From the NCBI GenBank assembly GCA_903889915.1, contig CAISZK010000230.1, positions 1 to 61,855 of the forward strand: 61,855 bases of DNA, read 5' to 3'. The notes beneath the pieces were generated by a model. It was not told the DNA's origin. It made no database searches and saw nothing but the letters and a program-made list of their open reading frames with translations. Each line of letters opens with the position of its first letter. The stretch's first letter is position 1. Source of the stretch: an uncultured Bacteroidota bacterium (GTDB lineage Bacteria > Bacteroidota > Bacteroidia > Bacteroidales > CG2-30-32-10). Of the stretch, positions 1,238 to 57,140 are shown one piece after another. The position numbers and the translations under genes were made by a program.

Positions 1238-3412
1238 ATGAAACACATCACCATTTGCACCCTCTTCGCAATAACATTTTTCTTCAGGATACCCGCGTTC
1301 AGCCAGAATATTCACCACGATATTAATGCCGGTATTGATATAGATCAGAAATCCCTCACCATCACCGACAGCGTGAAACTTCCCGGAGTCTATCTGAGAG
1401 GCATCAGGGACACCATAAAGTTTTATCTCAATTCAAATTTTTCAATCAAATCGTTGGATCCGACTATCAGGGTAGTGATGCTGAAAGAAACCATGAAAGA
1501 TACTGCCGACAAAGTTAAAGTAACAAAATACATGGTGCTTTATCCTTCCACGAATGCAGGCAAAGGATTTATACTTCCCCTGCAATACAGCGGAAAAGTG
1601 GAATACGGGATCAAGACCGATGCCATTGACTATGCCCGCGGATTCAGCGAAACTCCGGGCATCATTTCGAAAGAGGGTATTTACCTTGCTGCAACCACCG
1701 TGTGGCTGCCTGTTTTCAATGATTCGCTTTTCACTTTTAACCTTACAACCAGGATTGACACAGGCTGGGGCGTGGTTTCGCAGGGCACAAGAACGCGCGA
1801 TGAAACCGTTGGAAACAAAAAGATCATTACCTATAAAGAACCCGACCCCACTGCAGAATCATACCTGGTAGCCGCTAAATGGACTGAATATAACAAACAG
1901 GCAGGGAAAACCCTGGTGCAGGCTGAATTGCGCACACCAGACTCAACACTGGCAAACAAATACCTGCGTGCAACAGTGGGCTATCTCAAGATGTATGATA
2001 AACTCATCGGCCCTTATCCCTACACTAAATTTACGCTTGTTGAAAACTTCTGGGAAACGGGTTATGGAATGCCTTCATTCACCTTGCTTGGCGAACAGAT
2101 CATACGGTTCCCTTTTATTCTTACATCATCTTACCCGCATGAGTTGCTTCACAATTATTGGGGCAACAGTGTATATGTGGACAATGTCAAAGGAAACTGG
2201 TGCGAAGGCACTACGGTTTACATGGCCGATCATTTGCTGAAAGAACAGGACGGACAGGGCGCCGAATACAGAAGAGGAACCTTGCAGAAATTCACCGATT
2301 TTGTAAATGAAACCAATGATTTTCCATTGACCAAATTCCGCACAAGGAACAATTCAGCCGAAGAAGCTATTGGTTATGGAAAGTGCATGATGATGTTTGA
2401 AATGCTGCGCATCCAATATGGTGATGATCTTTTCAGGAAGTCATTTACAAAATTCTATAACGACAATAAGTTCAAACTTGCCTCCTTCGATGAGATCCGC
2501 AAGTCATTTGAAGCAGTGACAGGAAAAAACCTTGTTCCTTTCTTTGACCAGTGGATCACCCGCACAGGCGCACCAACACTGAAACTTTCAAATGTGGAAG
2601 TGGCTGCCAAAGACAATAAATACGGATTGTCGTTCACTGTTTCACAAATCCAGAAAGAAGCTCCTTTCACGATAACTGTCCCTGTAGCCATCTATCTTGA
2701 GGGTGTTGACAGTGTAATTGTAAAAAACATTGAACTCTCTAAACGTGCTGAAACATTTACTTACACTTATGATAAAAGGCCAGTGAGGATTGATGTTGAT
2801 CCGCAGTTTAATGTTTTCCGCCGCCTCGACAGGGATGAAGTGCCTCCATCACTGACACAGATCTTCGGCGATACAGATGCCGTGATGATACTTCCCAAAA
2901 GCAGCCCGTTTATTAAAGAATACCAGGACCTCGCTGATCAGTGGAAACAAACACAGCTTGCACAGGGCGCCAAACTGCAGATTGTTTACGATGCAGATTT
3001 GAAAGAGCTGCCAAATAAGGCAACGTGGATCATAGGATTTGATAATAAGTTTGCTGATTCGGCAAGTGTTTTTAAGAAATATACCGACATACTGCCTAAA
3101 GAAACGATGGACGAAGTGACAACACTGAAAAAGAGCGGCGGGTTGGTGTATGTTTATCAGAATCCCAAAAACAAAATGCTGACCAACGGATTTGTTGGCA
3201 GTAAAAACCAGGCAATGATCAGCGCTTTGAAAAGGAAGATCGTTCACTACGGAAAATACAGCTACCTCGGTTTTGAAGGTGATAAAGGCGATAATAAACT
3301 TAAGGGTGAATTTCCTACACTAAGTTCGCCGCTCAGTTTTATCATAAAATATGATGGGAAAGTAATTCCTTCCAAAGCGAAACTCAAAGTGAGAAAAGCG
3401 CTGGTGGATTAA
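1238..3412 (+). CDS. M1-family zinc metallopeptidase, secreted
   Basis: ORF 1199-3412. It has HELLHNYWG (HExxH) followed by WCEG about 18 residues later. The internal Met gives MKHITICTLFAITFFFRIPAFSQ, a signal peptide, so the start is set at 1238. Confidence 0.8.
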   Translation: MKHITICTLFAITFFFRIPAFSQNIHHDINAGIDIDQKSLTITDSVKLPGVYLRGIRDTIKFYLNSNFSIKSLDPTIRVVMLKETMKDTADKVKVTKYMVLYPSTNAGKGFILPLQYSGKVEYGIKTDAIDYARGFSETPGIISKEGIYLAATTVWLPVFNDSLFTFNLTTRIDTGWGVVSQGTRTRDETVGNKKIITYKEPDPTAESYLVAAKWTEYNKQAGKTLVQAELRTPDSTLANKYLRATVGYLKMYDKLIGPYPYTKFTLVENFWETGYGMPSFTLLGEQIIRFPFILTSSYPHELLHNYWGNSVYVDNVKGNWCEGTTVYMADHLLKEQDGQGAEYRRGTLQKFTDFVNETNDFPLTKFRTRNNSAEEAIGYGKCMMMFEMLRIQYGDDLFRKSFTKFYNDNKFKLASFDEIRKSFEAVTGKNLVPFFDQWITRTGAPTLKLSNVEVAAKDNKYGLSFTVSQIQKEAPFTITVPVAIYLEGVDSVIVKNIELSKRAETFTYTYDKRPVRIDVDPQFNVFRRLDRDEVPPSLTQIFGDTDAVMILPKSSPFIKEYQDLADQWKQTQLAQGAKLQIVYDADLKELPNKATWIIGFDNKFADSASVFKKYTDILPKETMDEVTTLKKSGGLVYVYQNPKNKMLTNGFVGSKNQAMISALKRKIVHYGKYSYLGFEGDKGDNKLKGEFPTLSSPLSFIIKYDGKVIPSKAKLKVRKALVD

Positions 3413-3420
3413 ATAAAAAA

Positions 3421-3451
3421 GGTGAAATGGTTATTCCATTTCACCTTTTTT
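3421..3451. terminator. Bidirectional intrinsic terminator between convergent genes
   Basis: GGTGAAATGG-ttatt-CCATTTCACC is a 10-bp perfect stem, with an A-run (3414-3420) on one side and a T-run (3446-3451) on the other. Confidence 0.65.
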
Positions 3452-3470
3452 CGTGAAATTCCCTTTCAGA

Positions 3471-4640
3471 CTAATTCAATTGTTCCGGTGCATTCTGAAA
3501 ATCTTGTTGATTTTCTGAAAATTTCTGAGACCTCTTTTCGGCTTTAAGTTTTTTACGATGGGCCACATTGCATTCAAGACTGCAATATTGTTTGAGCGGA
3601 AATTCAGTAGTGAAGTTACAGTCACAATAAAGACATTTGTTAACCGTAAATTCATTTTTTGCAACCACATTGCTTTCAATCATTGCCGGACCTGATTCAG
3701 GAATGATAAATTCTATCTGGTCATGACTTTCATCAAACACTCCGCTACGGTTGACTTTATTCTTTTTAACCCGCTTTGACTTACTTAAACGGGCATCATA
3801 AAAAGCTATACGGCAATCATCATTGCAGAATTTTTGATACTTCTCAGTCTTGATAAATGTTTTTTTACAGAAGTTACAGGTCTTTTCTTTGCGAAGATAA
3901 ATTTCTTTTTCTTTTGGTTCTCCGTGATAATAAGTTGTACGGCAATCATCACTGCAAAATTTCTGGGTACCATATTTTGCACTAAACTCTTTGTGACAAT
4001 TGGTACAAAATTCGATTTTAGGTGGCTTTTGATGTATCCTGTTCTCATAAAAAGCGTTTCGACAGTCATTGTCGCAAAATTTCTGATAAAGTACAGTTTT
4101 TAAAAATGGACGTTTGCAATGCCTGCATTTCTTGTAAATTTTATGATTTTTCTTGACTTTTAGATACTCGTCGCGGCATCTGTCATCGCAAAATTTCTGA
4201 TAAATTTCTTTCTGGGGAAAGACCTTATTGCAATTCAGGCAGGTTCTCTGTTCGTTTTCTGCTTGTTCTTTTTCAGTGATTTTTTTGTAGTAGATCTCGT
4301 CATAAAAAGCTGTACGGCAGTCTTCCTTACAGAATTTTTGGTATAGCTCTGATTTTACAAATGTCTTACCGCAATGCCGACACTTTTTTGTGTTATTCTT
4401 TGCCCTTTTCTTTTCATAAAAAGCTGTACGGCAATCATCGCTGCAAAATTTCTGATAAAGCATGGTTTTTTCATAATTTCCATTGCAATTCGGACAAACA
4501 ACTAAATTGTGCTTATGTTCTGGTGGTACAGGGTAAAATTTTAATATACATTCGCTGCTGCAAAATCTTTGACGATCGTCGTAAGTTTTATATGTCCGGT
4601 TGCAGTAACGGCAGGTTTTTACGTATGCTTCTGGTTCCAT
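3471..4640 (-). CDS. Protein of eight tandem Cys4 zinc-ribbon modules (CxxC-x13-C-x3-C, YQKFCxDDCRxAFY core), TRASH/YHS/FCS-like; function unknown
   Basis: ORF 3471-4685 starts at a TTG. The ATG at 4640-4638 (MEPEAYVKTCRYC...) is the more likely start. It has eight repeats such as CPNCNGNYEKTMLYQKFCSDDCRTAFY, joined by Lys/Arg-rich linkers. Confidence 0.75.
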   Translation of the reverse strand: MEPEAYVKTCRYCNRTYKTYDDRQRFCSSECILKFYPVPPEHKHNLVVCPNCNGNYEKTMLYQKFCSDDCRTAFYEKKRAKNNTKKCRHCGKTFVKSELYQKFCKEDCRTAFYDEIYYKKITEKEQAENEQRTCLNCNKVFPQKEIYQKFCDDRCRDEYLKVKKNHKIYKKCRHCKRPFLKTVLYQKFCDNDCRNAFYENRIHQKPPKIEFCTNCHKEFSAKYGTQKFCSDDCRTTYYHGEPKEKEIYLRKEKTCNFCKKTFIKTEKYQKFCNDDCRIAFYDARLSKSKRVKKNKVNRSGVFDESHDQIEFIIPESGPAMIESNVVAKNEFTVNKCLYCDCNFTTEFPLKQYCSLECNVAHRKKLKAEKRSQKFSENQQDFQNAPEQLN

Positions 4641-4967
4641 TTTAAGGGTTTTAAGGGTAATAAATTCAGAGGGCAAAATTAGCAAGTTAAAATTAAAAGT
4701 GATACGAAATCGAAATATTTTTTTTGGAAATAGCCCTATAATATAATAATTGCTATTTTCCCGCGGTTATTTGTTATAAGCGGACATAAACATAAAACCA
4801 GTCATACGAAAATTTAATGTTGGAAGTGTATGATGAATAATGTCCGGATAAAAAACTTGTCGAATAACCCGGAAAATTTCAATGTTATCTGGAACATCTG
4901 ATTTTTACTATGTTTGTTCAGATAAACAGAGAACTCACAGCATGCAGTTTACGGTCACAATTAAATC

Positions 4968-18793: not shown

Positions 18794-19618
18794 ATGCTTA
18801 AAAAAATAAATTCGATACTCAGACATACTTATGAAGATGTTGAAGCGGGTGCAGCTTTGTACAAACAATCATGCGGTAACAAATTAGACAAACGGGTGAT
18901 CATTGTTGCAATCATTTCTGCCATTTCGCTTGTTTTTATTGAGTATGTTGGGAAAGATCCCGGATATAGAATGCTTGTTGATTTCTCAAACAGCATTGGC
19001 CTTACCGGTTTTTCAACTTTTCTTATTCACAATCTCGAACAATCAGCCAACAGTCAGTTGAACCGGCTTGCATTCTGGATAGCCATTATTCTCATTTTTT
19101 ATCTTGCTGTTCCCATCATTACTATAAAGCTTGTCTTTCATGAAAAATTAAGTGACTATGGTTTTAGAATAGGAAATGTAAAGAAAGATTATGGGATATA
19201 TCTTGTGATGATGATCATCATGCTGCCCCTTGTTTACCTGATGTCGCGCACGAATTCTTTCCAGGAGAGGTATCCTTTCTATAATTTGCGGACAGGCGAA
19301 AGTCTCTATCCCAATTTCTGGATGTGGGAAGCCTTGTATTTCCTGCAGTTCATTGGTGTCGAATTTTTCTTTCGTGGTTTTATGCTGCATGGAACGAAAA
19401 GACAGCTCGGGTTTTATTCTGTGCTTTTCATGGTTGTTCCTTATTGTATGATCCATTTTGGGAAGCCCATGCCCGAAACATTTGCAGCAATTATCGCCGG
19501 TCTTGCGCTTGGCACACTTAGCCTTAAAAGCAAATCTATTGTTCCCGGCATTTTGATCCATTACAGTGTTGCCATTGCAATGGATTTTGCCGCCCTTTAC
19601 CAGAAAGGATATTTTTAA
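18794..19618 (+). CDS. CPBP-family intramembrane metalloprotease (CAAX protease-like)
   Basis: A multi-pass membrane protein with GVEFFFRGFMLH (EExxxR-type motif) and a late HYSVAIAMD motif. Confidence 0.75.
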   Translation: MLKKINSILRHTYEDVEAGAALYKQSCGNKLDKRVIIVAIISAISLVFIEYVGKDPGYRMLVDFSNSIGLTGFSTFLIHNLEQSANSQLNRLAFWIAIILIFYLAVPIITIKLVFHEKLSDYGFRIGNVKKDYGIYLVMMIIMLPLVYLMSRTNSFQERYPFYNLRTGESLYPNFWMWEALYFLQFIGVEFFFRGFMLHGTKRQLGFYSVLFMVVPYCMIHFGKPMPETFAAIIAGLALGTLSLKSKSIVPGILIHYSVAIAMDFAALYQKGYF

Positions 19619-19689
19619 TAAAATTTTCAATCAAATTGTTCTCCTAAAAGATGAATTTTGATCAGGTTTTTGATTTTAGATCCATTTTT

Positions 19690-20240
19690 TTATTTTCAAT
19701 TTCTGAATTTTTTAATTCCATTTCAAATTTTAAAATCTAGCCTCATTATCATAAAACCGGATCCTGATAATTGAACTGAATTTTCAAATTGAAAGAATGT
19801 TTTAATCAATTTCTCTGATTTTTCAGCCAAAAATCCTCAATTTTCCCTTTTTTCATTGCCTCTAAAAACAAATTCCTTCAAAGCATCTAATACTGCTTCA
19901 TTTGTTAAGAACCTTGCAATTGGTTGTTGAATAGATAAATGCATTTGTTAAATTCATTGAAAGAGACCAAGTCCTCAGGGAATAGTCTCTTTCCCTTAAG
20001 GAATGGTCTCTTTCCTTCAAGGAATGGTCTCTTTTCCTTAGGGAATGGTTTCTTTCCCTCAAGGAATGGTCTCTTTCCCTCAAGGAATGGTCTCTTTCCC
20101 TCAAGGAATGGTCTCTTTTCCTTAGGGAATGGTTTCTTTCCCTCAAGGAATGGTTTCTTTCCCTTAGGGAATGGTCTCACTCCCTCAGAGAATGTACCTA
20201 TTCACAATGCTAATGTACACCATTCACTTTGGTAAAGTAA
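19690..20240. repeat. Copy A of an unclassified ~550-bp non-coding element (conserved flank plus a 21-bp dyad array)
   Basis: The reverse complement of 19714-19975 aligns with 49609-49870 at roughly 80% identity by eye. The distal boundary TTCACTTTGGTA (about 20223-20235) matches TACCAGAGTGAA (about 49304-49317). Confidence 0.8.
19977..20207. repeat. Tandem array A: 11 units of exactly 21 bp, each (A/G)GGAA-N8-TTCC(C/T)
   Basis: GGAAT recurs at 19979, 20000, 20021, 20042, 20063, 20084, 20105, 20126, 20147, 20168 and 20189. Confidence 0.95.
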
Positions 20241-20421
20241 CAATTCTTTAGCAGACAAAAAAATTATCTTTTGAAGCTTCAGCTTGCAAAAATGTGTATG
20301 ATACAAAATAAAATAATAAGGTTTGATTTACTATAATGTTATTGTGTAATCAAATTAATAAAGTTTTGTCCTGCGTCTCAATAAAAAAGTTTAGGACTTT
20401 TTCATGACCTTTTTGCAAAAT

Positions 20422-21324
20422 TTATATCCTTTCAAGCACGAATTCAGTTTTTTCCTCCAATGACAATTCTCCTTCAATCCAGATAATGTCAATTCCTTTC
20501 TTTTCCATCCTTCTGAACCATGTCATTTGTCGTTTTGAAAATTGATGTATGGCAATGTTCAATTTACGGAACATCTCTTCGTAGCTTAATTCCTTTAAAA
20601 GAAATTGTGTGATAAATTTATATTCGAGACCATAGGACTTAAGCCTGCTTGCCGGAACTCCGCCATCTATAAGGGCTTTCACCTCATCTATCATTCCATT
20701 TTCAAGCCTTTCTTTCAATCTTAAAGTGATCCTTTCCGTAACGGTGGCCCTTTTATAATTCATTCCAAAAACAAATGATTCAAATTCGGGAACACTTAAT
20801 TTTTTTACTGAATCTGACTTTGAATAATGTTCGATTTCTATAGCTCTTAATAACCGTTCGCGGTTAACAGTGTCGGTGGTATTGTGCAGGGGCTTCAATG
20901 CTGCAAGCAAATCTTTCAGTTCATCATCAGAATTACCTGAAAGTTTTTCTCTGATTTCAGCCATTTCGGGAACTTCTGAAAAAGCATATCCATTTAAGAC
21001 GGATTCAAGATACAGCCCCGTTCCTCCACATAAAATTGGTGTTTTATTTCTTGAAGAAATATCAGTGAATGCTGAAATAAACCACTTTTGAAAATCAAAC
21101 ACACTGAACTCTTCGCCTGCATTGGCAATATCAATAAGATGAAAAGGAATTTTTGTCCCGTTTACAATGTAGTCATCATAATCTTTTCCGGTACCAATAT
21201 TCATTTCCTTAAACACCTGTCGTGAATCAGCGCTGATGATTTCTCCGTTGGTTTTATTGGCAACATGTGCAGCAAGTTTTGTCTTGCCTGTTGCCGTGGG
21301 GCCGAGAATAGTGATAAGTTTCAT
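20422..21324 (-). CDS. miaA: tRNA dimethylallyltransferase
   Basis: MKLITILGPTATGKTKLA, ISADSRQVFKEMNIGTGK. Confidence 0.9.
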   Translation of the reverse strand: MKLITILGPTATGKTKLAAHVANKTNGEIISADSRQVFKEMNIGTGKDYDDYIVNGTKIPFHLIDIANAGEEFSVFDFQKWFISAFTDISSRNKTPILCGGTGLYLESVLNGYAFSEVPEMAEIREKLSGNSDDELKDLLAALKPLHNTTDTVNRERLLRAIEIEHYSKSDSVKKLSVPEFESFVFGMNYKRATVTERITLRLKERLENGMIDEVKALIDGGVPASRLKSYGLEYKFITQFLLKELSYEEMFRKLNIAIHQFSKRQMTWFRRMEKKGIDIIWIEGELSLEEKTEFVLERI

Positions 21325-33100: not shown

Positions 33101-33390
33101 ATGATTCAAAATGCTGCAAATTGTGTCAAAATGCTACGAAATGTGACAAAATGCTACGAAATGTGACAAAATGCTGCAAATTGTGTCAAAATGCTACGAA
33201 ATGTGACAAAATGCTGCAAATTGTGTCAAAATGCTACGAAATGTGACAAAATGCTACAAAATGTGTCAAAATGCTACAAAATGTGACAAAATGCTACGAA
33301 ATGTGACAAAATACTACGAAATGTGACAAAATGCTACAAAATGTGACAAAATGCTACGAAATGTGACAAAATGCTACGAAATGTATCAAT
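33101..33390. repeat. Tandem array of 14.5 units of 20 bp (ATGCTACGAAATGTGACAAA), each made of two related 10-bp halves
   Basis: ATGCT recurs at 33111, 33131, 33151 and so on to 33371, with an exact 20-bp period. Five sequence variants are present, and there is a degenerate half-unit at 33091-33100. Confidence 0.95.
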
Positions 33391-34522: not shown

Positions 34523-34828
34523 TTATTTTATGACTGGCTCTATTGAAACACAGTTTTCAACACACATCTTAAATTCATCAAGGAAAAATGGATTGATGGA
34601 GTAATTGAGTTTTCGATTTATACGTTTTGTTATCAAAATTTTTCCATTTTTCATATCAACCAAGTATTGTGATACGGTTGGTTTTGGCAAATTCAACAGT
34701 GTTGCAATATTCTTTATTTCCAGTTCCCTCTCTTTTTCAAGCAAAGTGATAATTTTGCAATTTACCGGATGCATAAGGTATCGCAAACTTTTCATAAGGA
34801 ATCGTGCTTTTTCTTTATTGAGTTCCAT
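34523..34828 (-). CDS. ArsR/SmtB-like winged-helix regulator, paralog A1 (101 aa)
   Basis: LRYLMHPVNCKIITLLEKERELEIKNIATLLNLPKPTVSQYLVDMKNGKILITKRINRKLNYSINP fits the ArsR HTH_20 pattern. Confidence 0.7.
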   Translation of the reverse strand: MELNKEKARFLMKSLRYLMHPVNCKIITLLEKERELEIKNIATLLNLPKPTVSQYLVDMKNGKILITKRINRKLNYSINPFFLDEFKMCVENCVSIEPVIK

Positions 34829-34882
34829 AATATTTTTTTTAATGGTTATACGTGAATTTTTATTTTTATGAATAAAGGAAAG

Positions 34883-35197
34883 TCAAAATGTTTCCTTACT
34901 GTTATTGTCTGTGGCGAATATCTCGTCAATTGTTTTCAGCAAGTCTTCATGAAAAGTTTGGTTGATGCTATAAAGTACACTTCTGTCTTCGCGTCTTGTA
35001 AGTAATATCCCACAATCCCTAAGTTCTAAGAGAAAGGGGCGAACAATAGAATTATTAGTTTTTAATTCGTTTGCAATCCTGACAATATCCAATTCTTTCT
35101 CTTTTTCAAGCAAATTCAGAATTCTTTTGTTTGTACCATGTAAAAGACTTTTCAAAAAACTCAGGACAGTCTTCATTTTTTCTTCATTGACGTTCAT
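34883..35197 (-). CDS. ArsR/SmtB-like winged-helix regulator, paralog B1 (104 aa)
   Basis: LKSLLHGTNKRILNLLEKEKELDIVRIANELKTNNSIVRPFLLELRDCGILLTRREDRSVLYSIN. Confidence 0.7.
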   Translation of the reverse strand: MNVNEEKMKTVLSFLKSLLHGTNKRILNLLEKEKELDIVRIANELKTNNSIVRPFLLELRDCGILLTRREDRSVLYSINQTFHEDLLKTIDEIFATDNNSKETF

Positions 35198-35369
35198 AGG
35201 GAATTTCTATCAGTTATCGTAAATTAAATTTCAGATATGAATAGTCTAAATTAGCAATACCATTTGAGAATAAACAACCAATACGTAGTCATCATTTTGG
35301 TGATTATTCATACGTTTAGCATTAGCCCCGGCATTTTGCAGTGATTTTTTCAAGGAATGACGCAAAATC

Positions 35370-35675
35370 CTATTTTATGACTAACTCTATTGCAACACAA
35401 TTTTCAACTTTCTTCTTTAATTCATCAAGGAAAAATGGATTGATAGAGTAAATGACATTTCGACCTTCACGTTTTGATATCAAAATATTTCTTCTCTTCA
35501 TTTCAACCAGGTGATGCGATATGATCGGTTGTGGCAAATTCATCACTTGTATAATATTCGTTACATCCATTTTCTTCTCTTTTTCAAGTAAATTGATGAT
35601 TTTGCCTTTCACCGGATGGATAAGGCAGCGCAAACTTTTGATTGCGTACCGTGCTTTTTCATTACTGAATTCCAT
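35370..35675 (-). CDS. ArsR/SmtB-like winged-helix regulator, paralog A2 (101 aa)
   Basis: About 60% identical to A1 by eye. It has the same C-terminus, NPFFLDE.K..VENCV.IE.VIK. Confidence 0.7.
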   Translation of the reverse strand: MEFSNEKARYAIKSLRCLIHPVKGKIINLLEKEKKMDVTNIIQVMNLPQPIISHHLVEMKRRNILISKREGRNVIYSINPFFLDELKKKVENCVAIELVIK

Positions 35676-35729
35676 ATAATTTTTTTTAAAGTTTATAAAA
35701 TTATTTTCACCTTGCCGGATAAATGAAAG

Positions 35730-36044
35730 TCATTGTTTTTCCATACTGCTATTGCCGGTTGTGAAGATTTCATCAATTATTCCTAGTAATTTTTTATGAA
35801 AATTAAGGTTGAGGCTGTAGAGAATACTTCTGTCTTCGCGCCTTGAAACCAAAATTCCTTTATTGCGCATGTCTATTAGATAATGCGAAACGAAATTATT
35901 TGTAACTCTTATTTCTTTTGCAATTCTGTCAGTATCCAATTCTTTTTCTTGTTCAAGCAAATAGAGAATTCTTTTGTTAGTACTGTTTGAAAGACATTTC
36001 AAAAAGCACAGGGCTGTCTTTGCTTTTTCTACATTGATGTCCAT
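35730..36044 (-). CDS. ArsR/SmtB-like winged-helix regulator, paralog B2 (104 aa)
   Basis: About 60% identical to B1 by eye. It shares STNKRIL.LLE.EKELD and IDEIF.T.N.S. Confidence 0.7.
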   Translation of the reverse strand: MDINVEKAKTALCFLKCLSNSTNKRILYLLEQEKELDTDRIAKEIRVTNNFVSHYLIDMRNKGILVSRREDRSILYSLNLNFHKKLLGIIDEIFTTGNSSMEKQ

Positions 36045-36084
36045 AACAAATTTCTTTAAATGGTCGTAGATTGATTTTCAGAAA

Positions 36085-36411
36085 TTAATTATTTCCAAGA
36101 GTTGTTCTATATTTGGGGTCTTGCATTGTAATGCATTTATCCATTTTCTCAGCCAGATCTTTATGAAAGTCTGGATTGATGCTATAGATCATCCTTCTTT
36201 TATTACGTTCTGAAACCAAAACACCTCTGTCTTTCAGTTCAATTAAATAATGCGACACAACAGGCTGTATCAGTTTAATTTTATTCATAATAGTGTTTAC
36301 ATCCAATGCTTTTTCTTTTTCAAGTAAAGTAATGATCTCCCTGTTTACAGGATGGCAAAGACTGCGCAAAGATTTAATGATGTTGTTTGCTTTTTCTGTG
36401 TTTATTTCCAT
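36085..36411 (-). CDS. ArsR/SmtB-like winged-helix regulator, paralog C (108 aa)
   Basis: Intermediate between the two types: HPVN as in the A type and NPDFHKDL as in the B type. Confidence 0.7.
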   Translation of the reverse strand: MEINTEKANNIIKSLRSLCHPVNREIITLLEKEKALDVNTIMNKIKLIQPVVSHYLIELKDRGVLVSERNKRRMIYSINPDFHKDLAEKMDKCITMQDPKYRTTLGNN

Positions 36412-47418: not shown

Positions 47419-49140
47419 CTATTTCGTTTTTATGAAACACTTTTTTTCTGCATAATCATCCACTGAAAGTTTCCAAAAATTTCCTTCCAGTGTGAATCCT
47501 AAATTCTGATAATGCTCTTTCACCATTTCATTCTTAGAAGTAGGGATGAATTCTCCTTTCAGAAATGTACATCCATTTTCTTTGGCTTTTGCAACGATGG
47601 TGTTTAAAACAAAATTTTCAACACCACGCTTCAACACACGGCAGCTCATAAACCAAGTGTCAATAAACAAAGGCCCGCTGTTTTCTTTTTGTAAGATGAT
47701 GACACATATCAACCCATTGTCACCGAATTTATCTTCGAGTGTAAATGCAAATGTGAAATGATTCTTTGATGAAGCGAGTTTTTCGATATCGGCATCAGTG
47801 TAACGAATTGTGCGAAGGTTAAACTGATTTGAACGTTGCGATAGTTGGGCGACCCTCGGTGTGTTGAATTTGTTGAACTCCTCCACCTTCGAGATCATAT
47901 TTAAACTTTTCAGAAAATCATCTTCGTTGGTAAATTTTTTACTAATGCTGACCCTTTGAGCTTCTACCTGGTAAAGCCTGGTTCTTTCAGCATCCTCATT
48001 TGATGAAGAAACCGTTTCAAATAGATTGAGTGAGTAGAGGTATTCAAGATAATCAGCAGGGTCTTCCGGCAATTCAGGAACACAAATTCCGGGGATATTT
48101 TCACGAACCATATTTCTTTCGAAAGGATTGTCGTCAAGGAAAACCATGGAATCAAAACCAATGTTCAGGATGCTTTGAATTTGCCGGATATTGTCGGCTT
48201 TGTTTTCCCAGTTGGCTATAAAAACTGCAATGTCGTCAAGGTGCAGCACCATGTCGGGATGTTTTTCAAATGGCTCTTTGGCCACAGCTTCATAGTTCTT
48301 GCTGCAAACAGCCAGGATGATTCCGCGGTTTTTAAGTTTTTTTATCCAATACTGGAATTCAGTAAACGCTTTCCCAATGCCAAGGCTCCCTATCTTAATA
48401 TTTTCCAAACCATCATCTCCAATAGTGTCGCCCCAAAGGGTGTTGTCGAGATCCAATATCAGACATTTTTTAAACTTCCCGTTTAAAGCTTCAATTATAT
48501 CAAGGGTTTTTGAAGCAACTTGTGGAATAATGTCAATACTCAAAACCATTTCGGTATTGATGTAAACCGAAGGCTGGAAAAAAGTTTTTTTTCCAACTGA
48601 ATTTTGAATTGAAGAAATATCGCAGAGGTAAAGGTTGGCATTCTTTTGGGCAAGCAGCATCAGTTCGTAGTTAAGCTTTCGCAGCTGGAATAAAAAGGAT
48701 GATTCTGTTTTTGTGTTATAATTCCCATAAACAGCATCGTCAATTTCTGTATAGTTATAAAAGATGATCTTCGCGTTGAGGTGCTGGATCAAAGTGGTGT
48801 AAATATTTGCAATTGATCCAAGTTCAGCTTCTGCGAGTGAGCCATGCCTGTTGTTTTCGAGTTTATTGTATTTGCCAAGTAATTTATGCGACGACTGGAA
48901 AATTATAACAATTTCGGGCTTGTGTTCATATAATTCGGAAGTAAAGTCAAAAACCTGTCTTTCGATCTGGTTAAAATCGGCTTCCCAAATTTGCAGATCC
49001 AAACCATTATCAAAACCAAGTGCACGCAATGCCCGCACAAGAAATTGTGTGGTAGTATCGGCCAACAGACAAACTTTGATTTTTTTAAAATTCGAAAAGT
49101 CTTTTTTTAAATTCTTGGTTAATTGGAAAAAATCTTTCAT
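47419..49140 (-). CDS. HAD-IIIC family phosphatase / FkbH-like protein with a C-terminal GNAT-like domain
   Basis: ILDLDNTLWGDTIGDDG (HAD motif I), AVCSKN, FLDDNPFER. Confidence 0.75.
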   Translation of the reverse strand: MKDFFQLTKNLKKDFSNFKKIKVCLLADTTTQFLVRALRALGFDNGLDLQIWEADFNQIERQVFDFTSELYEHKPEIVIIFQSSHKLLGKYNKLENNRHGSLAEAELGSIANIYTTLIQHLNAKIIFYNYTEIDDAVYGNYNTKTESSFLFQLRKLNYELMLLAQKNANLYLCDISSIQNSVGKKTFFQPSVYINTEMVLSIDIIPQVASKTLDIIEALNGKFKKCLILDLDNTLWGDTIGDDGLENIKIGSLGIGKAFTEFQYWIKKLKNRGIILAVCSKNYEAVAKEPFEKHPDMVLHLDDIAVFIANWENKADNIRQIQSILNIGFDSMVFLDDNPFERNMVRENIPGICVPELPEDPADYLEYLYSLNLFETVSSSNEDAERTRLYQVEAQRVSISKKFTNEDDFLKSLNMISKVEEFNKFNTPRVAQLSQRSNQFNLRTIRYTDADIEKLASSKNHFTFAFTLEDKFGDNGLICVIILQKENSGPLFIDTWFMSCRVLKRGVENFVLNTIVAKAKENGCTFLKGEFIPTSKNEMVKEHYQNLGFTLEGNFWKLSVDDYAEKKCFIKTK

Positions 49141-49335
49141 GAAACTGTTTAGAGAAGGCTTTCTTAATATATTACGATTGAATTTTGCAGATGCAAAACT
49201 AAATTAAAATTCTGAATCGGCTGAAAATAAGCAGGAATAAATTGAATAATTTTGTTACAAAAGTGAAAGAGACTATTTTAAATCGCTTTGGAGGGTAAAT
49301 ACGCTACCAGAGTGAAAGAAACCAATTCCTAAGTG

Positions 49336-49368
49336 AGAGGTCTCTCTCCTTTAAGGAGAGAGACCTCT
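49336..49368 (+). terminator. 14-bp perfect hairpin followed by TTTTAAT (terminator-like on the plus strand), built from an array-unit core and its inverted copy
   Basis: AGAGGTCTCTCTCC-tttaa-GGAGAGAGACCTCT. Confidence 0.45.
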
Positions 49369-49386: not shown

Positions 49387-49620
49387 AAATGGAATAATTC
49401 CATTTCGTTACTGAATTGTCTCATTCCCTCACGAAATCGTCTCTCACCGTTACGGAATGGTCTCTCTCCCTTACGGAATCATTTCTTTCCGTAACGAATT
49501 GGTTTGTTTCCGTCACGGAATGGATTCACTCCGTTACGGAATCGTCTCTCTCCGTCACGGATGGGTTTCTTTCCGTTACGGAGATATCTTTCTCCGTAAG
49601 GATTTGGTCTTTTTCAATGA
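49387..49620. repeat. Tandem array B: about 10-11 units of 21 bp, mostly ACGGA(A)-N8-10-TCCGT
   Basis: The unit phase holds at 49391, 49412, 49433, 49454, 49475, 49496, 49517, 49538, 49559, 49580 and 49601. The first unit is the perfect palindrome AAATGGAATAATTCCATTT. Confidence 0.9.
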
Positions 49621-49989
49621 ATTTAACAAATGTATTTAATTATTCGACAATCAATTGCAATGTTCTTAACAAATAAAGTGGCATTAGATGCTTTGAATAA
49701 ATTTGTTTTTAGAGGCTATGGAAAGAGGGATTATTGATGATTTTAAGTTGGAAAACCATGGAAATTCATTAAAACATTCTTCAATTTGAAATTTCAATTC
49801 AATTATCAGGATCCGGTTTTATAATAATGAGATTTGATATTAAAATTTGAAATGGAATTGAGACTGTTCCGAAAAGTAAAAAGAAAAATAAAACCACAAA
49901 AACACCAATTCACTTCACACCGTGGGATATTTGTGCGATTGAAACAAGCTACAAATTTAAAATTATCGCTGTGTAAATTGTTTTTTGAG

Positions 49990-50068: not shown

Positions 50069-51403
50069 ATGAAAAACCTTTGCCTTTTATCCATCGTTTT
50101 ATTTTTTGTTCAACCTCTGAAAGCCCAATGGACAGTTGACCATCTTTCCATAGCCAGATGCTTCCCCGGCGCTGTGACAGTACAGAACAAAGTCTATATT
50201 GCCGGCGGCTACATCAACAACTCCCCCGGAGTAATGTCGAAGAGAATTGATATTTATGATAATTCAACCGGAACCTGGAGTATTGATTCACTCTCGTCTC
50301 CCCGCGGCGATGTAGGCTGTGCTTACCTGAATAATAAAATATTTTTTGCAGGCGGAACAACCAATGCTTTTGGAAGCGCTAAAGAAGTTGATATTTACAA
50401 TTTGCTCACCTCGTCATGGAGTGTTGATTCATTGCAAACTTTCCAGGCATCTGCTGTTCCTGTGGTGATCAATCACCGGATATTATTTGCCGGTGGTATT
50501 GCAACGGGTGGGGTTGGCGTTACAAAGATCATCAGTGTGTATGATGATTCCACGGGGTTGTGGTCTAAAGATTCTCTTTCAATTGGCCGATTTGGACTTG
50601 CCGGCGCAGCAATTGGCAACATTGCTGTCTTTGCCGGAGGATATACAAACACTACAAATTACACTACCATTAACAGAGTTGATATCTACAATTCCTTAAC
50701 CGGGACTTGGACAACTTCCACACTCTCGCAGGCAAGGGGAAATATTTCTGTCATTGCAAACGGAACCAAAATTTATTTTGCCGGAGGGCTTACCAGTGTC
50801 AGCACCAAAGTGCTTTCGAATAAAGTTGATATTTATGATGTGGTCACATCCACATGGACTACAGCAACCCTTTCTCAGGCCCGGAGAAACGTTGCTGTTG
50901 CCACTGTAGGTAATAAAATTTATTTTGCAAGCGGTGAGCAAAATTTTTCCTCAAACACACCCAGCAATAGGGTTGATATTTATAATGTGAGTACTTCACA
51001 ATGGAGCACCGATACTCTTTCAGTTCCTCACGATGCAGCAATAGGTGCTAGTGTTGGAAGCAAAATAATGATTGCGGGTGGCGGCTCTTATTCAACAAAT
51101 TCTTTTTCGAACGTAGTGGATATCTTTGATACAACCAATGCAAATGGCATTAATGAATCTTCTGTCAAAAATTGTTTCACTGTGTGGCCAAATCCTGTAA
51201 ATGATAAATTAAACATCTCCTTTGATGAAAATAGTATTGTAGGAACTATCAATATTTTCGCCATCAATGGGCAAAAGCAAAGTGAAATAAAACTCACGGA
51301 AAATAAGATGGTGATAGATGTCAGTACATTGTCAAATGGAATTTATTTTTTGAAATTTGTCAATGGATCAACTGTGGAAATAAAAAAGATAGTTAAAGGT
51401 TAA
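50069..51403 (+). CDS. Kelch-repeat beta-propeller protein with a T9SS C-terminal sorting domain
   Basis: About seven repeats of the type KIYFAGG...VDIY(D/N)..T..W. The C-terminus reads FTVWPNPVNDKLNISF...INIFAINGQK...LSNGIYFLKF. Confidence 0.85.
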   Translation: MKNLCLLSIVLFFVQPLKAQWTVDHLSIARCFPGAVTVQNKVYIAGGYINNSPGVMSKRIDIYDNSTGTWSIDSLSSPRGDVGCAYLNNKIFFAGGTTNAFGSAKEVDIYNLLTSSWSVDSLQTFQASAVPVVINHRILFAGGIATGGVGVTKIISVYDDSTGLWSKDSLSIGRFGLAGAAIGNIAVFAGGYTNTTNYTTINRVDIYNSLTGTWTTSTLSQARGNISVIANGTKIYFAGGLTSVSTKVLSNKVDIYDVVTSTWTTATLSQARRNVAVATVGNKIYFASGEQNFSSNTPSNRVDIYNVSTSQWSTDTLSVPHDAAIGASVGSKIMIAGGGSYSTNSFSNVVDIFDTTNANGINESSVKNCFTVWPNPVNDKLNISFDENSIVGTINIFAINGQKQSEIKLTENKMVIDVSTLSNGIYFLKFVNGSTVEIKKIVKG

Positions 51404-56595: not shown

Positions 56596-56675
56596 GCCGG
56601 GATTCAGTTAGATTTTTTTTTATCTTTGCTTATAATTTCTTCAAGTCATGATTGGAAATCTTATTTGCTTTTAAA

Positions 56676-57140
56676 GTGAAAAAAGTACTTCTTATTTTAA
56701 TTGCTTTTTTAATAGGCCTTGTTAGTTTTGCTCAAAGAACTCCATTGAATTCGGACACTACAAAGAAATCCGATTCCATTATTCCTTTGCGAAAAAACAA
56801 TTTACATCCTCACAATGTCCAACAAATAAAATCAAACAAAACCGACACCATCACAACCGCTTCTGATACCATCACCCAAAACAATGGTCAATTCCAGCAG
56901 GATGATCAACCCTGGCAACAGCAAATTTCACCTGAACAATTAAAGCAGCAGCAAATACAAGAACAACAACGCGACCAACAACAGCGGGACCAGCAGCAAC
57001 GTGAGCAACAACAACGTGAGCAACAGCAGCGCGATCTTCAACAAAGAGATCAGCAACAACGCGAACAACAGCAGCGAGAGCAACAACAACAGCAAGAACA
57101 ACAACAGCAGCAACAGCAACAACAGCAGCACCCTCACTAA
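56676..57140 (+). CDS. Secreted Gln-rich protein with (QQR[DE]Q)n pentapeptide repeats and a poly-Q tail
   Basis: ORF 56652 begins on a TTG. GTG 56676 gives MKKVLLILIAFLIGLVSFAQ. The repeats run from 56964 to about 57083 and the poly-Q tail to 57131. Confidence 0.6.
   Translation: MKKVLLILIAFLIGLVSFAQRTPLNSDTTKKSDSIIPLRKNNLHPHNVQQIKSNKTDTITTASDTITQNNGQFQQDDQPWQQQISPEQLKQQQIQEQQRDQQQRDQQQREQQQREQQQRDLQQRDQQQREQQQREQQQQQEQQQQQQQQQQHPH

Follow-up and report, generated by a model that had tools for sequence, protein, structure and literature searches.

Two intergenic elements in a stretch of Bacteroidota chromosome carry arrays of a 21-bp repeat that run in opposite senses relative to their conserved flanks. 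Does this flip represent an invertible segment caught in opposite states, as the preliminary description of the locus proposed, or a rearrangement that arose in one copy and became fixed? We addressed the question within a window comprising the whole stretch of DNA analysed (61,855 nt), in related loci from metagenomes, and in assemblies of the same species.

Anatomy of copies A and B

The window has a G+C content of about 37%, contains the housekeeping genes miaA, comEC, lpxB, and surE, and encodes several proteins with type IX secretion sorting domains. Homologues of MiaA and FkbH place it among uncultured Bacteroidales-like lineages, the nearest proteins outside contigs of the same species being 73% (MiaA) and 89% (FkbH) identical. 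No tRNA genes or Rfam families were found across the window, and no recombinase, integrase, or transposase domain was detected in the 62 kb, either among the scanned ORFs or in precomputed Pfam calls for identical contigs. Copy A sits between two convergent genes, an Rce1-like gene (18794-19618, plus strand) and miaA (20422-21324, minus strand), and copy B between two divergent ones, an FkbH-like gene (47419-49140, minus strand) and a Kelch-repeat gene (50069-51403, plus strand), the latter bearing a type IX secretion (T9SS) sorting domain.

The intergenic region that holds copy A (19619-20421, minus strand) extends between the stop codons of the Rce1-like gene and miaA. Within it, the proximal flank (19684-19953, minus strand) abuts a boundary unit, P (19954-19974, minus strand), which reads GGACTTGGTCTCTTTCAATGA in the orientation of the flank. 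The array (19975-20184, plus strand) follows, with ten 21-bp units of the form ...GGAATGGTCTCTTTCC..., opposite to unit P, and then a distal boundary (20185-20247, minus strand) with two degenerate D-like units and the distal motif TTTACCAAAGTGAA at 20223-20236. Tandem Repeats Finder delimits the array at 19973-20194, with a period of 21, 10.6 copies, and 86% matches, and detects a higher-order period of 84 bp with 92% matches. A 91-aa ORF across this array was rejected as spurious, given that a protein search returned only unrelated repeat peptides resembling eukaryotic neuropeptide precursors.

Copy B is laid out in the reverse direction. Its distal flank (49203-49335, plus strand) contains the distal motif twice (49254-49267 and 49303-49316), together with the D-polarity units GTGAAAGAGAC at 49263-49273 and GTGAAAGAAACCAATTCCTAA at 49312-49332, and is followed by a perfect palindrome at 49336-49368, with 16-nt arms that are 100% complementary and a 1-nt centre. 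The palindrome consists of one unit of P polarity followed by one of D polarity, coincides with the region where polarity switches, and is terminator-like in a terminator scan. Beyond it lie nine degenerate 21-bp units of P polarity (49411-49599, plus strand; 49406-49597, 9.1 copies, and 69% matches according to Tandem Repeats Finder), the boundary unit P (49600-49620, plus strand; GGATTTGGTCTTTTTCAATGA), and the proximal flank (49621-49889, plus strand), which ends 180 bp upstream of the Kelch-repeat gene. Of the two arrays, A is the young, homogeneous one, whereas B is old and degenerate.

Each unit combines a dyad, TTCC-N5-GGAA, with an asymmetric core, GGTCTC/GAGACC, and is quasi-palindromic. 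Symmetry of a 21-bp repeat about one axis entails near-symmetry about a second axis half a period away, so that polarity is carried by about six central bases; because it is confined to these few bases, the arrays give periodic matches even in the "wrong" orientation. The polarity of a unit was therefore called from approximately 6 central bases per 21 bp, and the calls are consistent over all units of A and B. As single strands, both arrays fold far better than shuffled controls (z of -5.6 and -6.3).

Against this background, the arrangement that had been reported for the two copies is borne out. Their proximal flanks (19684-19958 in A and 49621-49889 in B) are mutually inverted and 86% identical, and the longer inverted-repeat arms, 19684-20003 and 49571-49889, are 81% identical. 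When the flanks are oriented alike, BLAST aligns them on the same strand (85.8% identity over 268 nt, E of 1e-79), whereas similarity between the arrays is confined to the opposite strand (77-79%, E down to 1e-20). Both arrays read GGAATGGTCTC on the plus strand, where all 15 matches to the unit GGAATGGTCTCTTTCC with up to 3 mismatches are located, against 0.62 expected by chance; the arrays are thus direct repeats in spite of their inverted flanks. Unit-by-unit scoring confirmed that the array cores are opposite in sense relative to the flank: all 10 units of copy A have one polarity (0-2 mismatches versus 6-7), and all 9 array units of copy B, as well as its flank-proximal unit, have the other. 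The distal motif GTTACMARAGKGAA lies on the minus strand in A (20223-20236) and on the plus strand in B (49254-49267 and 49303-49316), and since it is inverted between the copies as well, the flanks on both sides keep their mutual orientation and only the intervening array is reversed.

The two junction repeats described earlier were also recovered where they had been placed. Copy A has a 9-nt inverted repeat next to the proximal flank (GAAAGAGAC at 19959-19967 and GTCTCTTTC at 19985-19993), and copy B has its palindrome at the flank-distal end. They are not specific sites, however: quasi-palindromic units produce a palindromic junction wherever polarity changes. The junction repeats are simply opposed units, which lie proximally in A but distally in B and in two of the related loci described below (L030 and, weakly, L018). 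No specific inverted-repeat sites that bound the segment and are conserved between copies were found.

Other repeats are present in the window. A separate tandem array at 33107-33384, flanked by a SnoaL-like gene (minus strand) and a zinc alcohol dehydrogenase gene (plus strand), consists of 14 copies of a 20-bp unit, CAAAATGCTACGAAATGTGA, with a 10-bp sub-period; it is preceded by TTGAATAATTCAATCATTCAGGGAATAAC, a sequence similar to the distal motif of copies A and B. The stretch 34523-36411 (minus strand) is occupied by five paralogous ORFs in tandem, each about 100 aa long, the first with an ArsR-type helix-turn-helix, and a 404-aa ORF at 3471-4685 (minus strand) is internally repetitive (four to five repeats) and gives a weak NinG-like match. 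A CAA/CAG-rich repeat with a 15-bp period (56944-57139) falls within the ORF 56652-57140, which encodes a Q/N-rich low-complexity protein.

A family of interspersed elements

A scan of metagenomes with a 20-mer spanning the array/flank junction returned 20 loci, of which 16 are chance matches and four are true relatives (L018, L020, L029, and L030). All four are intergenic and come from a single sample, Ga0118677; L029 is cut at a contig end, and six family members were thus seen, one of them truncated. The comparison shows that copies A and B are members of a family of noncoding interspersed elements in uncultured Bacteroidales. Each element is built from three parts, namely a short motif on the distal side, a minisatellite with a 21-bp unit, and, on the proximal side, a conserved module of about 150 bp; in the complete relatives (L018, L020, and L030), an array of 15-16 units abuts the same proximal flank. 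About 150 nt of the proximal module are conserved in the six copies, and about 275 nt are common to A and B. In copy A, it is the array-adjacent part of the flank (~19819-19953) that is conserved family-wide, to approximately +142 from the junction in the comparisons with L018, L029, and L030, while the outer part is common only to copy B. On the far side of the array, the distal motif and the first (D) unit, spanning about 25-45 nt, are conserved in five copies.

Unlike the boundary units, which are conserved, the array units are private to each copy (e.g., CTGAATGTCTTCATTCCCTCA in L020 and a 42-bp double unit in L030). Unit P, which reads TAAGGATTTGGTCTCTTTCAATGA in flank orientation, has one polarity across the six copies, in agreement with the earlier observation that the flank-proximal unit is alike in A and B. 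Wherever its polarity could be scored, unit D is opposed to P, as in B (GTGAAAGAAACCAATTCCTAA), in L030 (GTGAAAGTGACCATTTCCTTA), and weakly in L018. The general architecture is therefore a run of D polarity followed by a run of P polarity. In A, the switch point adjoins the proximal flank; in B, it is close to the distal flank, and the switch region there is a D-P-D stretch that includes the perfect 33-bp palindrome. In L030, polarity switches directly after a single D unit; L018 and L020 look alike, but their D units score weakly or ambiguously. The array itself has P polarity in B, L018, L020, and L030 and D polarity in A, the calls for L020 and L030 resting on the GTCT core only, as their units are otherwise too diverged. 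Copy A thus differs from B and three other family members in having its array reversed with respect to both conserved flanks. Consistently, the BLAST alignment of B with L018 keeps to one strand across the array (75.9% over 340 nt, E of 1e-44), whereas the array of A matches that of L018 on the opposite strand only.

The genes beside the proximal flank are unrelated (Kelch, FGE-sulfatase-like, ankyrin-repeat, and an unknown protein), and in A and L030, the gene on the flank side is convergent, with its 3' end towards the flank. The 62-kb window contains 2 copies and sample Ga0118677 at least 4, all of them intergenic. The lineage of the window seems to be rich in intergenic minisatellites. In L020, a second 21-bp array with a different unit, CATTATGCTTGCAAACACAAC, occupies positions 2077-2389, and an IS256-family transposase gene (2587-3801) lies between this array and the element.

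We found no indication that the conserved flank is transcribed into a structured RNA: it has no Rfam match, and in the RNAalifold alignment the covariation term is unfavourable, with 1 compensatory pair out of 39. A 34-aa ORF in the flank was rejected, being interrupted by a stop codon in 4 of the 6 copies, and a 19-aa ORF (MNLTN...) that is open in all 6 (by eye) was not treated as coding owing to its mostly nonsynonymous substitutions. An extended inverted repeat between the distal and proximal flanks did not exceed shuffled controls in 4 of 5 copies, the exception being L018. Scans for sigma-70-type promoters and terminators yielded nothing above shuffled sequences save the palindrome, and Bacteroidetes-type TAnnTTTG boxes occur in single copies and are unconserved (by eye). 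Any effect of the element on neighbouring transcription would be passive at most, exerted through hairpins and the terminator-like palindrome. Element B had no matches among plasmids and phages (BLAST) or in two pattern scans of viral contigs, and a scan of contigs from species-representative genomes with the flank 20-mer was discarded, as its sole hit was a chance match inside a Fulvivirga coding sequence.

The nearest relatives recovered lack both copies beside the corresponding genes. In L041, the gene order YjbQ, PNP, DUF4197, GT2, miaA, and Rce1-like is conserved, with MiaA and the Rce1-like protein 69% and 73% identical to those of the window, and the stop codons of miaA and the Rce1-like gene are 4 bp apart, compared to 803 bp in the window; homology ends at 19618 and 20465, leaving out the intergenic region that holds copy A. 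In L046 (FkbH 89% identical), homology ends at 49202, just before element B, and no array follows, although the gene order also changes past this point. Given the conserved gene order, the absence of copy A from L041 points to its gain in the lineage of the window, as might be expected of a mobile or at least spreading repeat. Target-site duplications were not recognised at the elements, whose exact ends are undefined and whose empty-site relatives are diverged (69-89% protein identity).

Contigs of the same species, drawn from several samples and assemblers, are colinear with the window. L002 and L005 agree with it at every position of element A (zero mismatches), and L003 is colinear with it but exactly 84 bp shorter in array A, i.e., by four units or one higher-order block, which reflects either copy-number polymorphism or assembly collapse. 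L007, L008, and L009 are identical to the window through element B. Each locus accordingly shows one orientation in three assemblies and in the window, and in this respect the orientation appears fixed; these are consensus sequences from one apparent population, in which minority orientations are invisible.

In at least 4 independent assemblies of the same species, a cluster of contig ends is found at the outer edge of each element. Contigs lying outside the elements stop at 19651 or start at 49838 and 49880. For those lying inside, the first position is 19643 or 19665 and the last is 49897 or 49898; a single contig of 30,172 bp spans exactly 19643-49897. No matching inverted core was found at these points. 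An alternative junction was encountered in a single case, L016, from another lake sample, which leaves the window sequence after 19808, following the outer flank of A, and contains at 1062-1094 a 33-nt sequence, GCATGAAGAAAATGAGCATAGAAATATTATTGA, that is absent from the window and the fetched loci and is possibly a gene start. The clustering could reflect strain-level rearrangement, further copies of the outer flank, or assembler behaviour. An inversion of the 30 kb between the elements was considered and set aside, no alternative junction for it having been recovered.

Origin of the reversed array

In our assessment, the flip between arrays A and B is probably an old, fixed rearrangement within the fast-evolving minisatellite of an interspersed element family and not a working switch. 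This reading is favoured by the colinearity of the assemblies, by the lack of a recombinase or transposase domain in the window, and by the contrast between the young array of A and the degenerate one of B. Turnover of the arrays by slippage or unequal exchange is fast and leaves each copy with its own unit variant. Signs of turnover are the 84-bp period of array A at 92%, the assembly that lacks exactly 84 bp, the 69% matches within array B, and the privacy of the units.

As to the mutational mechanism of the flip, we infer two possible routes, both starting from the observed placement of the array between two conserved boundary units whose polarities oppose each other (D distally, P proximally). 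In route (a), the stretch between the opposed units would be inverted by intramolecular recombination or by template switching during replication. In route (b), units of P polarity would be lost and units of D polarity amplified from the opposite boundary unit, with no inversion needed, in arrays whose turnover is demonstrably complete. The array unit of A, GGGAAAGAGACCATTCCTTGA, agrees with the D unit of B at 18 of 21 positions and with that of L030 at 16 of 21 (manual count), and it is about equally near to the D unit and to the reverse complement of the array unit of B. Because the quasi-palindromic units make it equally close to both sources, the two routes are inseparable by this comparison, and we weight them about equally. 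That array B, degenerate elsewhere, contains a perfect 33-bp palindrome suggests that template switching takes place in such arrays. The proposal that recombination or template switching between inverted units could flip the array hence retains its plausibility, as opposed units are present at the boundaries, but expansion from the other boundary fits equally well.

An unlikely alternative is that the units are multimerised ends of an IS5-type transposon (GAGACC...) bound by the cognate transposase, whose action on opposed ends would have produced the flip and perhaps the growth of the array. The A unit contains GAGACCATTCC and unit P contains GAGACCAA(A/G)TCC, resembling the ISPg1 end, GAGACCATTGCA, and the terminal repeats of BrickBuilt elements, GAGACCTTTGCA (PMC4596501), and units D and P are arranged as the left and right ends of such an element would be. 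Moreover, the 23-nt BrickBuilt unit contains GAGACCAT, an 8-nt match for which we estimate a chance probability of ~1-2% for such units. Nevertheless, the match covers few bases, the cores of the units diverge further in L018, L020, and L030, and target-site duplications were not recognised; an IS5-family transposase is absent from the window and the fetched loci, the sole transposase among them being the IS256-type enzyme in L020. It is quite unlikely, moreover, that the units are multiplied transposase ends still acted upon by an enzyme encoded elsewhere, in which case array polarity, and perhaps the 30-kb segment between the elements, would be variable and the clustering of contig ends would be its trace.

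Minority orientations aside, a switch is unlikely, and the specific notion of a programmed segment that flips reversibly between opposed units, with A and B in different states, appears to us improbable. It draws on the opposed units that flank the array in both copies, on the frequent termination of contigs in or beside the elements, and on the richness of Bacteroidales in invertons, which are likewise short intergenic segments between inverted repeats (PMC11892184, PMC11602134). In contrast to invertons, however, no invertase was found in the window, consensus contigs that span the elements show one state per locus, and no internal promoter is demonstrated. The putative sites amount to a 9-24-nt imperfect repeat that is a product of unit structure, the two arrays differ strongly in age and homogeneity, and the other complete family members all have one polarity. 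Furthermore, A and B are different, diverged loci, with flanks that differ by 14%, so that the description of one segment caught in opposite states does not apply to them. Were the flip an active switch, it would represent a new kind of phase variation, which the present evidence does not favour.

Alternatively, the arrays might be strand-polar functional sites, for instance for protein binding, their orientation being selected relative to chromosome replication or transcription and not to the flank. That both arrays lie on the plus strand, that the net GC skew across the window is positive, and that 21-bp phasing would place the dyads on one face of the helix (B-DNA geometry) are in line with this idea. 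Yet the GC skew of the polarity strand is negative in L018, L020, and L030 and positive in L029, so that skew and polarity are not consistently related, a weak test given the shortness of these loci, and the unit sequences differ among copies, rendering a common binding protein unlikely; we consider the idea very improbable. Finally, misassembly of the orientation of array A is extremely improbable: although assembly is difficult where a tandem array exceeds the k-mer size, and although a number of contigs terminate within or next to the array, the junctions on both sides were recovered in independent assemblies from different samples and pipelines (L002, L003, and L005 in addition to the window), and both consist of unique sequence within read length.

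Relationship to known repeat systems

Fixed rearrangement of a fast-evolving array, our preferred reading, can be set beside several known systems and processes. A CRISPR array is ruled out, since the units are contiguous, at 21 bp from start to start, with no spacers; iteron and centromere arrays were considered too, their defining features being missing or unconfirmed here. REP units are 20-40 bp long, separated by linkers, and typically alternating, with GTAG/CGTC heads and associated RAYT transposases. The elements described here have units arranged strictly head-to-tail at 21 bp; no GTAG/CGTC head is visible in the unit sequences, and no RAYT-like gene is present among the annotated ORFs. 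REP/BIME sequences of Proteobacteria nonetheless share with our elements the short imperfect palindromes, the polarity derived from a small asymmetry, and the occurrence in intergenic clusters in both orientations (PMC3733652). Quasipalindrome template-switch mutagenesis, an established process that acts on imperfect inverted repeats and perfects them (PMC7202029), is consistent with the flawless 33-bp palindrome of array B and could also bring about a local inversion; it is, however, a mutational process and not an element family, and inverting the 210-bp array would need two switches.

Among interspersed elements, MITEPgRS/MITE464 of Porphyromonas gingivalis is likewise a nonautonomous element of Bacteroidales with an internal minisatellite (41-nt repeats) and IS5-like ends, GAGACTGTTGCA, but it differs in unit length and in having repetitive flanks. 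Of the known systems, the one closest to our elements is BrickBuilt of P. gingivalis and P. gulae (Klein et al. 2015), a MITE with a 23-nt minisatellite, IS5-like terminal repeats (GAGACCTTTGCA), and bidirectional promoter activity (PMC4596501). Both are multicopy and always intergenic in a Bacteroidales host (PMC4596501), and both carry spacerless tandem repeats of ~20-23 nt in variable number, the copies here containing 10.6 (A), 9.1 (B), or 15-16 (L018, L020, and L030) units at a period of 21 bp. In each case, the array is enclosed by two different conserved nonrepetitive flanks, which in BrickBuilt are the "leader" and "tail" of up to ~300 nt, and the presence of copies varies between relatives, as illustrated here by L041 and L046, which are without the sequence. 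The differences lie in the period (23 versus 21 nt), in the quasi-palindromic units and very short distal flank of the elements described here, and in the placement of the GAGACC motif, which here occurs in array and boundary units and not at the outer flank ends, where no IS5-like terminal inverted repeats were found. Text searches of the BrickBuilt paper turned up nothing on reversal of the array (PMC4596501).

Sequence comparison with the published BrickBuilt_5 unit, AGACCATAGTATCCTCTCATATG (in tandem, ...TGAGACCAT...), to which the comparison is confined, revealed an 8-nt core, GAGACCAT, shared with the A unit and the ISPg1 end GAGACCATTGCA, and no similarity beyond it. This provides a lead that the minisatellites of both families may derive from IS5-type ends; the shared GAGACCAT core hints that the bricks of both stem from the ends of such transposons, which, if true, would explain the origin of the arrays. 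The elements break metagenome assemblies and could be taken for invertons. Together with BrickBuilt, they bring to two the lineages of interspersed elements with internal minisatellites in Bacteroidales, the two being apparently unrelated in sequence. They also show that an array of this kind is enclosed by boundary units of opposite polarity and can come to read in either sense.
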